Below are positions 15,354 to 18,552 of a DNA stretch of 64,000 nucleotides, piece after piece. The position numbers and the translations under genes were made by a program. Within the stretch, counting starts at the first letter, position 1; each line of letters opens with the position of its first letter. Below the pieces are notes generated by a model. That model was not told where the DNA came from and did not search any database. It worked only from the letters and a program-made list of their open reading frames with translations. The DNA comes from Candidatus Limnocylindrales bacterium (GTDB taxonomy: Bacteria; Chloroflexota; Limnocylindria; Limnocylindrales; CSP1-4). The stretch lies in NCBI GenBank assembly GCA_036392215.1, contig DASVYJ010000027.1, positions 15,637 through 79,636 on the forward strand, given 5' to 3'.

Positions 15354-16547
15354 TCAGACCCGGCCCCTCGGGACGGTCAGCCAGTAGGTCTTGTTGAAGA
15401 CGATCTTGCCGAGGTGCCAGAGCTGGTTCGGCTTCGGCGGCCGCGGCGGGTGCTCGTAGTCGAACTGCAGGAGCGTGCCCTTGCCGTCGCCGATCTCGAA
15501 GAAGCACATCACCTTGCCGGTGTACGAGCCCTCCTTGGCGTGCGGCTCCCGGCCGAGGACGGCCGCGGCGATCCGCTCGGCGACGATGGGCGCCTCGAAG
15601 TGCGCCGTCGAGCCGGCCTTGGAGAGGGGCAGGTCGGTCGCGTCGCCAAGGGCGTAGACGTTCGGGTACCGCTCGATCTGCTCGTCCGGCGTGTTCGGCG
15701 CGGCGAGATGCTTGACCTGGAGGGTGTGGCGGTCGGTCGGCAGCCAGCCGGACGGGGGCGCCAGGCCGGCATCGATGACCACCTGGGCGCCCTTGTGGGG
15801 CGGGACCAGGATGAGCAGGTCGTAGGGGAGCTCCTCGCCCTCGAGGCTGTTCACCGTCTTGTGCTCGGCGTCGATGGTCTCGACGTTGAAGAACGTGTGG
15901 ACCTCGATGCCCTTCTGCTCGAAGTAGGGCGTCGCCATCTCGCTGACGGTCTCGATGGTGAAGACTCGGCCGATCGGCGAGCAGAAGTGGAGCTCGGTCT
16001 TGTCGCGCAGGCCGCGCTCACGGAGCTCGGACTCGACGAGGAAGGCGACCTCGAGCGGGGCCGGTGGACACTTGTAGGGCATGCCGGCGATGCCGATGAC
16101 GAGCTTGCCGCCCTTGAAGTCGTCGAGCGCGGCGCGCAGGCGGGCGGCTGCCTCGGCGGTATAGAAGTGGTGGGCCTCGGTGTCGAAGTGCTCGATCAGC
16201 TCGGGCAGGATCCGCGAGCCGGTCGCCAGGACGAGGTGGTCGTACGGCAGGCGCATCCCGTCAGCGAGCTCGACGAGGCGGCCGGCGGCGTCGATCCGCT
16301 CGATCTGACCGACGACGAGCTCGACCTCCTTGTCGAGCAGCCGGCGCTCCGGCCGCTCCAGATTCTTGGCCCGCTCGCCGCCCATCGCGATGTACATGAA
16401 GCCCGGCTGGTAGGTGTGGTGGCCGGTCAGGTCCACGACCGTGACGACGGCCTCGCCGCGGGCGATCTGGCGGCGGAGCTTGCGGGCGATGAGGTTCGCG
16501 GCCAGCGTCCCGCCGACCCCCCCGCCCAGCACCAGGATGCGCTGCAT
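15354..16547 (-). CDS. sqr: Sulfide:quinone oxidoreductase (FAD-dependent, SQR type)
   Basis: MQRILVLGGGVGGTLAAN Rossmann start ...MPYKCPPAPLE... with conserved Cys. GGAAGGACAG RBS. Confidence 0.9.
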   Translation of the reverse strand: MQRILVLGGGVGGTLAANLIARKLRRQIARGEAVVTVVDLTGHHTYQPGFMYIAMGGERAKNLERPERRLLDKEVELVVGQIERIDAAGRLVELADGMRLPYDHLVLATGSRILPELIEHFDTEAHHFYTAEAAARLRAALDDFKGGKLVIGIAGMPYKCPPAPLEVAFLVESELRERGLRDKTELHFCSPIGRVFTIETVSEMATPYFEQKGIEVHTFFNVETIDAEHKTVNSLEGEELPYDLLILVPPHKGAQVVIDAGLAPPSGWLPTDRHTLQVKHLAAPNTPDEQIERYPNVYALGDATDLPLSKAGSTAHFEAPIVAERIAAAVLGREPHAKEGSYTGKVMCFFEIGDGKGTLLQFDYEHPPRPPKPNQLWHLGKIVFNKTYWLTVPRGRV

Positions 16548-16572
16548 CTGACTGTCCTTCCGTCCGTTCGAG

Positions 16573-16821
16573 CTAGCGCAGCTTCTCGACGACGATCTCG
16601 TCGTAGCCGTCGCGGTCGAAGACGCCGACGAAGCGGTGGCCCGCCTTCTCGACCCACTTGGGGATGTCGGTCTTGGAGCCGCGGTCCGCCGACCAGACGG
16701 CGATGACGTCGCCGACCTGGCCCTCGCGGATGGCGCGGATGAGCTCCATCAGCGGGCCGGGGCAGAACGAGCCGCGGGCATCGACGGTGCGGGTGATGGG
16801 AGGCGTGGCGGTATCGGTCAC
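16573..16821 (-). CDS. TusA-like sulfurtransferase (SirA/YedF/YeeD family)
   Basis: DARGSFCPGPLMELIRAI is the CPxP motif. Confidence 0.85.
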   Translation of the reverse strand: MTDTATPPITRTVDARGSFCPGPLMELIRAIREGQVGDVIAVWSADRGSKTDIPKWVEKAGHRFVGVFDRDGYDEIVVEKLR

Positions 16822-16876
16822 GGGAGGGTCCTTTCGGAGTGGGGGCGGGCGGCGCGGGGCCGCCCGCCGTCGGCGT

Positions 16877-17437
16877 TCAGATGAAGAGCGGCGACGAGCC
16901 TTCCTGCATCAGGCCGATGACGGTGGCGGCGCCGACCGGCTCGCCCATCCCGTCGATGAGGTCCTCGCGCTTGAGGCCGAACATGTCCATCGTCATCTGG
17001 CAGGGCATGAACTCGACGCCCATGAGCTGGGCGGCCTCGAGCAGCTCCTTGGGGCTGGCGACGTTGTATTGCTTGGCCAGCTTGCCCATCATCCAGGGGC
17101 CCATGCCCAGGAAGTTCATCTTCGAGAGCTTCCGGTGGCTGATGCCCGGCCGCTGCATGAAGGACATCATCTTCTGCATCCAGTTGTCGCCGGTGATGCG
17201 TTTCGAGTCCTTGACGAAGACCTGGAGACCCCAGAAGGTCACGAAGACGCGGCACGTGGCGCCCATCGCCCCGGCCGTCGAGGCCAGGATCATCGTCGCC
17301 CAGACCTTTTCCAGGTCGCCGCTGTAGTCGATGATCAGGATGTCGTGGAGTTGCGGCTCGGCCGCGGGGGCGGCCGGCTCGGGAGCGGCCTCGGGCGCCA
17401 CCGGGGTGGTCAGCTCGGGCTCAGCGATCGCGGTCAT
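16877..17437 (-). CDS. DsrE/DsrF-family sulfur-relay protein with an Ala/Pro-rich N-terminal extension
   Basis: The DsrE-fold core (ILIIDYSGDLEKVWATMILASTAGAMG...MPCQMTMDMFG) follows a 30-aa low-complexity tail. Confidence 0.8.
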   Translation of the reverse strand: MTAIAEPELTTPVAPEAAPEPAAPAAEPQLHDILIIDYSGDLEKVWATMILASTAGAMGATCRVFVTFWGLQVFVKDSKRITGDNWMQKMMSFMQRPGISHRKLSKMNFLGMGPWMMGKLAKQYNVASPKELLEAAQLMGVEFMPCQMTMDMFGLKREDLIDGMGEPVGAATVIGLMQEGSSPLFI

Positions 17438-17447
17438 CTCGGTCCCC

Positions 17448-17684
17448 TTACTTGTGGCGGAGGACGAAGCGGTAGACGCCGCCCTCGACGCCCGACTCGA
17501 CCATCGTGTTGCCGGTCGACTTGGCCCAGGCCTCGAAGTCCTTGGTCGAGCCCGGGTCGGTGGCGAGGACCTCGATCAGCTGCCCGGCCCCGACGTTCTT
17601 CATCGCCTGGGCGGTGCGCACGATCGGCAGCGGGCAGGAGAGTCCCCGCGCGTCGACGTGGGCCGTGATCTCGAGCGTGCTCAT
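17448..17684 (-). CDS. TusA-like sulfurtransferase (second copy)
   Basis: DARGLSCPLPIVRTAQAM is the CPxP motif. Confidence 0.85.
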   Translation of the reverse strand: MSTLEITAHVDARGLSCPLPIVRTAQAMKNVGAGQLIEVLATDPGSTKDFEAWAKSTGNTMVESGVEGGVYRFVLRHK

Positions 17685-17724
17685 GGTCGTTCCTTTCCCC
17701 TCCGGCCTCGCGGCCGGGTCGGTC

Positions 17725-18138
17725 TCAGATGAAGAGCAGCTGGCCGTCGCCCGCGGCGAGGTAGAAGGCGGTCACGCCCTCGACGCCGTCGACGAGCGAG
17801 TCGAGGTCCGCTTCCTCGAGCCCGAGCACGTCCATCGACAGCGAGCAGGCCTGGATGTCGACCTCGCCGAGCTCCTTGGCCTGCCGGAGCGTCTCGGCCC
17901 AGCTCGCCTGCCCGGCAGCCCGGAGCGCGTCCATGCGGGCCTTGCCCTCGACGCCGGCCTCCGGGACCGCCCCGTGGTCCGCCTCGATGCGGTCCTTGCG
18001 GAACGCGTCGAGAGCCCAGTACTGGAGGAACAGGTGGACGGGCCGGCCGAGGGCGGCGGCGCCGGCGGTCATCACCGCGGCGGCCTGCAGCTTGTCGTCC
18101 GTGCCCGAGAACAGGACCAGGGAGAGATCTTCGCTCAC
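17725..18138 (-). CDS. DsrE/DsrF-family sulfur-relay protein (second copy)
   Basis: SLVLFSGTDDKLQAAAVMTAGAAALG...QACSLSMDVLGL is the DsrE fold with the active-site Cys. Confidence 0.8.
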   Translation of the reverse strand: MSEDLSLVLFSGTDDKLQAAAVMTAGAAALGRPVHLFLQYWALDAFRKDRIEADHGAVPEAGVEGKARMDALRAAGQASWAETLRQAKELGEVDIQACSLSMDVLGLEEADLDSLVDGVEGVTAFYLAAGDGQLLFI

Positions 18139-18140
18139 AG

Positions 18141-18536
18141 CTACCTCGCGCTCACTTCGCTGGGGACCGTGGTTGCGGGACGCTGTTCCGGCAGAGCGGG
18201 GCCCGCCGCGGCAGCCGACAGGTCGGCCATCCGGGCCAGGCGCCGCATCAGGACGCGCCGCATCAGATCGCAGGCGGCCAGGATCTGCGGATCGGTCAGG
18301 CGATAACGGACCTCTCGCCCGTCCCGCTCGGCCTCGACCACGCCGGCGGCTCGCATCACCGCGAGGTGCTGCGAGACGTTGGGCTGGCTGATGCCGATCT
18401 CCTCGGCCAGTCGGCTGACCTCACATGGGCCGTCGGCCAGGCGATGGATGATCTCGAGCCGACGCGGGCTGGCGAGGGTCTTCAGGACCTCGGCCTGGAG
18501 GGAGAAGATCTCGTCCATGTGCAGCAGCATCGCCAT
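18141..18536 (-). CDS. ArsR/SmtB-family repressor, candidate persulfide sensor of the SqrR/BigR type (two Cys about 62 residues apart)
   Basis: HTH: LKTLASPRRLEIIHRLADGPCEVSRLAEEIGISQPNVSQHLAVMRAAG, with Cys in the alpha2 region and a second Cys in ILAACDLMRR near the C-terminus. It sits at the head of the DsrE/TusA/SQR operon. Confidence 0.8.
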   Translation of the reverse strand: MAMLLHMDEIFSLQAEVLKTLASPRRLEIIHRLADGPCEVSRLAEEIGISQPNVSQHLAVMRAAGVVEAERDGREVRYRLTDPQILAACDLMRRVLMRRLARMADLSAAAAGPALPEQRPATTVPSEVSAR

Positions 18537-18552
18537 ATGCGCAGTTGCGCAT
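18537..18552. promoter_or_regulatory. Perfect 7-2-7 palindrome ATGCGCA-gt-TGCGCAT immediately upstream of the ArsR start codon: candidate ArsR-type operator
   Basis: Seen in the sequence. ArsR/SmtB repressors bind 12-2-12-type inverted repeats that overlap their own promoters. Confidence 0.5.

Follow-up and report, generated by a model that had tools for sequence, protein, structure and literature searches.

The closest functional precedent for the gene cluster analysed here is the sulfide:quinone reductase (SQR)-TusA-DsrE operon of Methylacidiphilum fumariolicum. In strain SolV this operon, MFUM_v2_0219-21, encodes a type III SQR, TusA and a DsrE2-like protein, is about 1.7-fold upregulated in sulfide-adapted cells and is proposed to convert H2S to sulfur (PMC10205796). 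ArsR-type sulfane-sulfur repressors of sulfide and sulfur oxidation genes are SqrR of Rhodobacter capsulatus, BigR of Xylella and Agrobacterium, and SoxR and sHdrR of Hyphomicrobium, all with inverted-repeat operators (PMC10451225). The cst operon of Staphylococcus aureus (cstR, tauE, cstA, cstB, sqr) combines a reactive-sulfur-sensing repressor with a sulfurtransferase and SQR for sulfide detoxification (PMC5480029). The sulfur transfer in DsrE3-TusA systems is one-way, from DsrE3 to TusA (PMC4175335; PMC11094781). Here we describe a cluster of six genes with its operator at positions 15354-18552 of a 64,000-nt stretch (the window) of contig DASVYJ010000027.1 from a Candidatus Limnocylindrales bacterium, and compare it with these systems.

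We suggest that the cluster is probably an autonomous, auto-repressed operon, which joins sulfide oxidation to a sulfur relay under the control of an ArsR-type repressor. The earlier note on this DNA had read it as an ArsR-regulated operon of two DsrE3-like/TusA pairs and an SQR, and this part is borne out by the domain matches, by synteny and by the active-site cysteines, all of which are conserved. Conservation is counted over 81 species-level loci of Limnocylindria (Chloroflexota), with fewer loci per gene where given. Limnocylindria are abundant, uncultured Chloroflexota of soil and freshwater. The cluster occurs in many Chloroflexota of soil. The best 80 loci listed in the genome scan for related loci are all from Chloroflexota; outside this phylum the distribution was sampled via three look-ups only.

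Gene content, operator and promoter

The six genes lie on the minus strand, where the earlier note had placed them, and the G+C content of the window is 73%. They encode, in the direction of transcription, the regulator, a DsrE-like protein, TusA, a second DsrE-like protein, a second TusA and an SQR-like flavoprotein. Domains were called with Pfam gathering scores and NCBIfam equivalog cut-offs. The regulator (18141-18518, the longest ORF reaching 18536) is an ArsR/SmtB winged-helix repressor of 125 aa from its conserved start (PF01022, E=1e-15; NF033788, 90.7 bits against a cut-off of 55). It is followed by the DsrE3-like sulfur carrier 1 (17725-18138, 137 aa, active-site Cys98; PF13686, E=7e-15, 55.7 bits against 25) and by TusA 1 with the CPLP motif (17448-17684, 78 aa; PF01206, E=3e-23, 81.9 bits against 28.6). 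The second pair consists of the DsrE3-like sulfur carrier 2 (16877-17437, 186 aa, active-site Cys146; PF13686, E=2e-42, 145.3 bits against 25) and of TusA 2 with the CPGP motif (16573-16821, 82 aa; PF01206, E=5e-21, 74.7 bits against 28.6). The last gene (15354-16547) encodes the SQR of 397 aa (PF07992, E=7e-17).

The genes are tightly packed. The gaps between them are 2, 40, 10, 55 and 25 nt, the first DsrE start codon being 2 nt past the regulator stop codon, and a Shine-Dalgarno site precedes every gene except the regulator. Right after the SQR stop codon there is a GC-rich hairpin with a 12-bp perfect stem and no U-tract (15301-15331, minus strand). It opens a spacer of 174 nt, which was folded as a stretch of 177 nt; the energy is -116 kcal/mol (z=-3.8), and not one of 200 shuffled sequences is as stable. 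The hairpin of this terminator-like structured spacer is likely the end of the operon. No known RNA element was found by Rfam at E<=1 within 15000-19000. The next gene past the spacer encodes a class-III aminotransferase (13836-15179, minus strand), a conserved synteny that holds for most loci, whether or not they have hyp genes.

The order regulator-DsrE-TusA-DsrE is kept in essentially all 81 loci, and TusA 2 and SQR are present in most of them. Such a recurrence of the same gene order is far beyond chance. The catalytic residues are kept as well: Cys98 of DsrE 1 in 77/77 loci, Cys146 of DsrE 2 in 78/78, Cys17 of TusA 1 in 80/80, Cys20 of TusA 2 in 59/59, and Cys160 and Cys348 of SQR in 54/54 and 48/48, respectively. 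2QS7 is the closest solved relative of both DsrE 1 (E=2e-22) and DsrE 2, the latter also having 3PNX as a solved relative, and the active-site cysteine of both proteins aligns with that of 2QS7. Both score below the cut-off of 210 on the DsrE2 equivalog model, with 28 and 70 bits for DsrE 1 and DsrE 2. SQR is a flavoprotein with two dinucleotide folds and an N-terminal GGGVGG FAD-binding motif. It aligns over its full length with the solved SQRs 8DHK and 6OI5, both redox cysteines being matched, and with human SQOR (E=3e-33), whose Cys201 and Cys379 align to Cys160 and Cys348. Its top NCBIfam model is NF049943 (type III, selenoprotein subtype; E=4e-100, residues 2-389), and the protein is predicted to be type-III-like.

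Some of the loci hold shorter variants of the cluster. These end before TusA 2 and SQR, and then convergent TauE and DUF1634 genes, a second ArsR gene and a rhodanese gene follow. The variants are found at L027:11872-15328 and in the matching stretches of L024, L035 and L070; the second ArsR protein (about 45% identical) is seen in L024 and the single-domain rhodanese in L027.

The operator of the cluster is sharply defined. It is a perfect 7-2-7 palindrome, ATGCGCA-AC-TGCGCAT, at 18537-18552 (ATGCGCAACTGCGCAT), 18 nt upstream of the true ATG of the regulator. The earlier note had mentioned a palindrome, and the one before the regulator proves to be real: the dyad ATGCGCA-NN-TGCGCAT recurs 33-35 nt upstream of the regulator ATG in 79/79 scored loci, being perfect (14/14) in 51 of the 79 and matching at 11/14 or better in all of them. 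Per position, the information content is about 1.3-2 bits in the arms and about 0.1-0.4 bits in the two central nucleotides. Position 18552, at which the earlier note ended its unit, is the outer edge of the palindrome and not a start codon; the ATG there is out of frame. Within the window the operator is unique at up to 2 mismatches, and among the related loci (1.3 Mb) there is one copy per locus, with no further site at up to 1 mismatch except in L034. In that locus hypE and the regulator are about 3.2 kb apart, and three operator-like copies (ATGCGCCGATGCGCAT; L034:6963-7156) stand 70-110 nt from each other just past hypE, about 3 kb upstream of the regulator.

The region between the operator and the start codon (18519-18536, minus strand) is a putative -10 region with a leaderless transcription start, as suggested by its conserved positions. 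Counted from the A of the ATG in 82 loci, position -11 is A in 63%, position -7 is T in 71% and position -1 is C in 93%, and a Shine-Dalgarno-like motif precedes the regulator in only 1/82. This pattern points to a -10 element driving a leaderless transcript of the regulator, with the operator placed over the promoter spacer, which would be classical auto-repression. Upstream of the operator there is also a conserved GGCAC(T) block; taking it for a sigma-54-like element was rejected, the spacing being off by one.

The regulator and its invariant cysteine

The start of the homologues corresponds to codon 7 of the longest ORF (18518), where Met is found in 110 and Val in 10 of 120 sequences, and therefore we take 18518 as the true start of a protein of 125 aa. 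The NCBI annotation of the identical protein (P0001) also has 125 aa. The regulator has two cysteines, C38 and C89 from the first ATG, that is, C32 and C83 from the true start. Cys83 is invariant in the 81 species and lies within the helix-5 motif Cys83-x-x-Met86. Cys32 is present in only 43/81, and the other 38 have K, R, L, M, V or S at this position. His25 is invariant in the regulator orthologues. The AlphaFold model of the regulator (pLDDT 84.6) has helices 1-5 and a beta wing; Cys32 falls into the loop that leads to helix 3, and Cys83 sits on the second turn of the long helix 5 (residues 77-104). The top Foldseek matches are all of the ArsR family, the likeness being general and none of the matches being specially close to SqrR or BigR.

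To compare the cysteine positions, the regulator was aligned with MAFFT to a PGAP-named BigR encoded on a Rhizobium plasmid (L084) and to a Xylella BigR fragment. The SqrR/BigR arrangement is defined by a cysteine in helix 2 (C41 of SqrR, C42 of BigR) and a cysteine in helix 5 (C107 and C108). The helix-2 cysteine of BigR aligns to the invariant His25 of the regulator and the helix-5 cysteine aligns to Met91, a variable position (Q, L, E, M). The cysteines of the regulator lie 7 residues after and 8 residues before these positions, and Cys83 is thus two helical turns earlier in helix 5 than the SqrR/BigR cysteine. As judged from the alignment, the regulator is without the SqrR/BigR cysteine pair. 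Hence the earlier note's assignment of the two-Cys arrangement of SqrR/BigR does not hold, given the different cysteine positions, the score of 65.6 bits on the BigR equivalog NF040642 (cut-off 155) and the lack of Cys32 in 38 of the 81 species.

We note that, across loci L003-L083, the residue at position 32 (18423-18425, minus strand) varies with the neighbourhood of the cluster. It is not Cys, and mostly K or R, in 30/35 hyp-linked loci and is Cys in 35/39 hyp-free loci. The loss of Cys32 thus tracks hyp linkage, which may merely mirror two clades; the window is one of the few loci with both Cys32 and an adjacent hypE.

The helix-5 cysteine extends beyond the close orthologues. No specific NCBIfam equivalog covers the close relatives of the regulator, and only 11 clusters of a library clustered at 50% identity match it at E<=1e-30. 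Among about 135 full-length representatives nearest to the regulator the helix-5 cysteine is present in 98, mostly within A-C-x-x-M-R, and about 60 of the 135 couple it with a helix-1 cysteine; the BigR-type positions carry a cysteine once each. In relatives with 48-56% identity (L085-L091; P0284, P0326, P0323) the helix-5 cysteine is kept and a helix-1 cysteine is added. These relatives stand in front of a YgaP-like membrane protein with transporters of the RND or MMPL type, or of a DsrE gene with an SQR-like flavoprotein. Counted with the TauE and rhodanese of the short variant, there are three independent contexts, which indicate reactive sulfur rather than metals as the signal.

Cys83 (query residue 89) corresponds to residue 111 of SmtB and residue 91 of CzrA, in alignments extended ungapped by one and three residues, respectively. 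We take these residues to be approximately at the midpoint of the antiparallel helix-5 pair, in line with the known alpha5 metal sites. Because Cys83 maps to this midpoint, the two subunits could conceivably be joined across the dimer axis by a Cys83-Sn-Cys83' bridge. We tentatively propose that the regulator might be the founder of an ArsR branch that senses reactive sulfur via the single invariant helix-5 cysteine (A-C-x-x-M-R), with a partner cysteine that is optional and shifts by lineage. According to this proposal the partner would be missing in hyp-linked Limnocylindria; hyp-free ones would have it in the helix 2-3 loop and the more distant relatives in helix 1. OhrR, with its 1-Cys and 2-Cys forms, would offer a parallel.

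The proposed mechanism is as follows. In the resting state the ArsR-type dimer would occupy the 7-2-7 palindrome, which overlaps its own leaderless-type promoter, and thereby keep the operon off. With the rise of sulfide or sulfane sulfur, or of a related oxidant, the invariant Cys83 would be persulfidated, or bridged to the partner cysteine where it is present, and the repressor would leave the DNA. We infer both the inducer and this repressor logic. The membrane-associated SQR would then oxidise H2S and pass the electrons to the quinone pool, which the neighbouring cytochrome-b-linked uptake hydrogenase, judging by its family, presumably also feeds. The sulfane sulfur would move to the active-site cysteine of the DsrE3-like proteins and further to TusA, so that reactive sulfur stays protein-bound for onward oxidation or use. 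The direction of the DsrE-to-TusA transfer is modelled on the published biochemistry of DsrE3 and TusA.

Several observations weigh against the proposed operon and its regulation. The regulator stays below every specific NCBIfam equivalog cut-off, and its closest solved relative by sequence is Rv0081 (E=3e-15), which is not a sulfur sensor. A sigma-70 consensus promoter scan was negative and no -35 element is recognisable, so the promoter reading draws on the conservation of the positions. SQR scores 335 bits on NF049943, the only type III model available, below its cut-off of 525, and for this reason we call it only type-III-like. Genes for the further fate of sulfur were sought among the scanned genes of the 64-kb window, with about 10 ORFs, mostly at 51.6-64 kb, outside the scan; no persulfide dioxygenase, rhodanese or sHdr genes and no dioxygenase of the metallo-beta-lactamase fold were found among the scanned genes. 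An sHdr-linked sulfur relay at this locus was likewise rejected, as hdr-like and lbpA genes were not found among them. Finally, no experiments on any member of the cluster were found in the literature.

The hydrogenase neighbourhood and rival explanations

Upstream of the cluster, outside the unit and on the same strand, is hypE (18661-19749, AIRS and AIRS_C domains). It belongs to a block of hydrogenase and maturation genes, all on the minus strand: the small subunit of a membrane-bound uptake NiFe hydrogenase (27087-28283), its large subunit (25379-27124), a b-type cytochrome (24560-25366), a maturation protease (24072-24563), hypA (23752-24072; 27.7 bits, just below the Pfam cut-off of 28.9), hypF (21263-23620), hypC (20915-21244) and hypD (19746-20918). 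From the hypE stop codon (18661-18663) there are 124 nt to the first in-frame ATG of the regulator (18536) and 142 nt to the ATG of the homologues (18518).

This arrangement admits a hydrogen-sulfur super-operon, in which the sulfur genes would be read from the promoter of the hydrogenase or hyp genes, for example with H2 and H2S as co-regulated auxiliary electron donors. The shared strand and the short gap speak for it, as do the quinone-reducing types of both enzymes (the cytochrome b subunit of the hydrogenase; SQR). A consensus scan found no terminator between hypE and the regulator, and the 152-nt spacer folds no better than its shuffles (z=-1.0); therefore separate transcription cannot be argued from a terminator, and read-through from hypE is possible in the window genome. 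Linkage was counted in the 74 loci with enough upstream sequence, with adjacent meaning less than 450 nt and a search reach of 10 kb upstream. By this count hypE is adjacent in 21/74 loci and hyp genes are within 10 kb but not adjacent in 14/74, so that the 35/74 with linkage are well above random. However, in 39/74 loci the same operon is kept with no hyp genes within this reach. There the cluster is preceded by tRNA_edit, a 160-aa ORF and a 2-oxoacid:ferredoxin oxidoreductase gene; in the window these genes lie beyond the hydrogenase block. The block is thus an insert that some loci have and others lack, placed between tRNA_edit and the regulator of a conserved backbone. Moreover, the operator and the promoter signature are identical in hyp-linked and hyp-free loci, and a scan of the window found no operator-like site near the hydrogenase genes beyond chance level. 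We consider the super-operon unlikely. From the earlier note's claim that the cluster is fused to the hyp operon, the shared strand and the short distance stand for this genome, whereas the fusion as a property of the system does not. The comparison of loci instead indicates that the six-gene cluster is an autonomous unit and the hyp linkage a lineage-specific neighbourhood.

Other readings concern the signal and the purpose of the relay. A sensor of the SqrR/BigR type would form an intramolecular Cys-Sn-Cys bridge between the two cysteines of the regulator, and the ArsR fold, the two cysteines in the window genome, the sqr gene in the operon and the rank of BigR as second-best NCBIfam and second-best solved sequence match are all consistent with it. 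We regard it as very doubtful, since the positions of the BigR/SqrR cysteines are taken by His25 and a variable Met/Gln, the BigR model falls far short of its cut-off, the nearest representatives hardly ever carry the BigR-type cysteines, and Cys32 is replaced in the 38 species that keep the same operon. Equally improbable in our view is a sensor of soft metals, Cu(I)- or Cd-like, that would use His25, Cys83 and Met86, with DsrE, TusA and SQR in another thiol- or metal-linked role. Its invariant His, Cys and Met are plausible soft ligands, the generic model 'metalloregulator ArsR/SmtB' (NF033788) is the only NCBIfam model above its cut-off, and CmtR is the third-best match; but the alpha3N, alpha5, alpha5c and CmtR-type ligand sets are all missing in the alignments, the operon is without a metal transporter or chaperone, and in three separate branches of the family the neighbouring genes are those of sulfur carriers, SQR, TauE and rhodanese. 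The DsrE/TusA pairs could also supply sulfur for biosynthesis (tRNA thiolation, molybdenum cofactor) instead of sulfide oxidation, TusA being a sulfur carrier with many uses. E. coli TusA is the top NCBIfam match for both TusA proteins, yet their scores of 43 and 32 bits stay below the equivalog cut-off of 78. As TusBCDE, MnmA and Moa genes are not present and the linkage to SQR, or to TauE and rhodanese, is tight, such a supply role is highly improbable.

Two further candidates concern the hydrogenase and were rejected. A regulator of hydrogenase like Rv0081 does not fit the linkage, which is to DsrE and TusA in 81/81 loci and to hyp in under half. A second operator tying the hydrogenase to the regulator was sought in the window; the sole extra match, at 28427-28442 (GTGCGCAACCGTGCAT), has 3 mismatches, which is at chance level (0.34 per window). 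The right arm of this site is poor, and about 145 nt separate it from the hydrogenase small-subunit start downstream.

Several other features were observed around the block. One hyp-free genome has a 199-aa fragment of a NiFe large subunit about 7 kb upstream of the cluster (L001:3082-3681), which may be the remnant of a lost block. Past the hydrogenase operon, at the end away from the cluster, the window has a third, small gene of the DsrE/TusD type (29755-30105, plus strand, 116 aa; PF02635, E=1e-24). It adjoins tRNA_edit and the 160-aa ORF, which has no family match. An AmmeMemoRadiSam pair follows at 30172-32243 (minus strand), formed by a Memo-like protein and its radical-SAM partner (TIGR04337, 332 bits; cut-off 220). 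At 40356-42773 (minus strand) an 805-aa subunit of 2-oxoacid:ferredoxin oxidoreductase carries an N-terminal response-regulator receiver domain, an unusual fusion; a CBS-domain protein and a TPP/ferredoxin subunit come after it.

Significance and comparison with known systems

A conserved, apparently sulfide-inducible operon of SQR and a sulfur relay suggests the use or detoxification of H2S by Limnocylindria. About one third to one half of the species have it beside the genes of an uptake hydrogenase and its maturation. As SQR and the hydrogenase are both of quinone-reducing types, this would fit a lifestyle supplemented by traces of inorganic electron donors. For sulfide handling such a set of genes is ordinary; what most merits experiment is the regulator with its operator, this operator/repressor pair being sharply defined by phylogenetic footprinting. 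A sulfide-induced operon of type III SQR, TusA and DsrE is already known; what is possibly novel is the one-Cys ArsR-type sensor. If the proposal is true, the repressor extends thiol-based sulfur sensing by ArsR proteins past the SqrR/BigR cysteine pair. There is also a lesson for annotation: an ArsR gene beside sqr should not be called SqrR or BigR before the positions of its cysteines are checked.

Rv0081 of Mycobacterium tuberculosis, which heads a hydrogenase-like operon, is similar in being the closest solved relative and in standing, like the present regulator, beside hydrogenase-related genes. However, Rv0081 has Leu at the place of the invariant cysteine, and the regulator described here always accompanies DsrE and TusA, whereas hyp genes are found with it in under half of the loci.

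The logic of the cst operon is analogous, and TauE and rhodanese also occur with the short variants found here. The regulators differ, the cst one being of the CsoR family and the present one of the ArsR family. CstA is a single multidomain sulfurtransferase; Higgins et al. in 2015 are said to have described it as joining rhodanese, TusA-like and DsrE-like domains. The cst operon also has the persulfide dioxygenase CstB, whose counterpart was not found among the scanned window genes.

The DsrE and TusA pairs resemble DsrE3A-TusA of Metallosphaera cuprina and the DsrE3B/C-TusA pairs of sHdr clusters in the PF13686 domain, the single conserved cysteine and the CPxP-type TusA partner. Unlike in those systems, the partner enzyme here is SQR, and sHdr, LbpA and lipoamide dehydrogenase genes were not found nearby among the scanned genes.

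With SqrR, BigR, SoxR and sHdrR the regulator shares the ArsR/SmtB winged-helix fold, the putative role and an inverted-repeat operator. It differs from them in the cysteines, since those of helix 2 and helix 5 are missing at the homologous positions and only one cysteine is invariant.

Last, the Methylacidiphilum operon, likened here by description and not by sequence, brings the same three kinds of protein together, and a type III model is the top SQR match in our case too. In the Limnocylindria cluster DsrE and TusA are duplicated, the order is reversed with SQR in the last place, and an ArsR gene with a conserved operator leads the unit.

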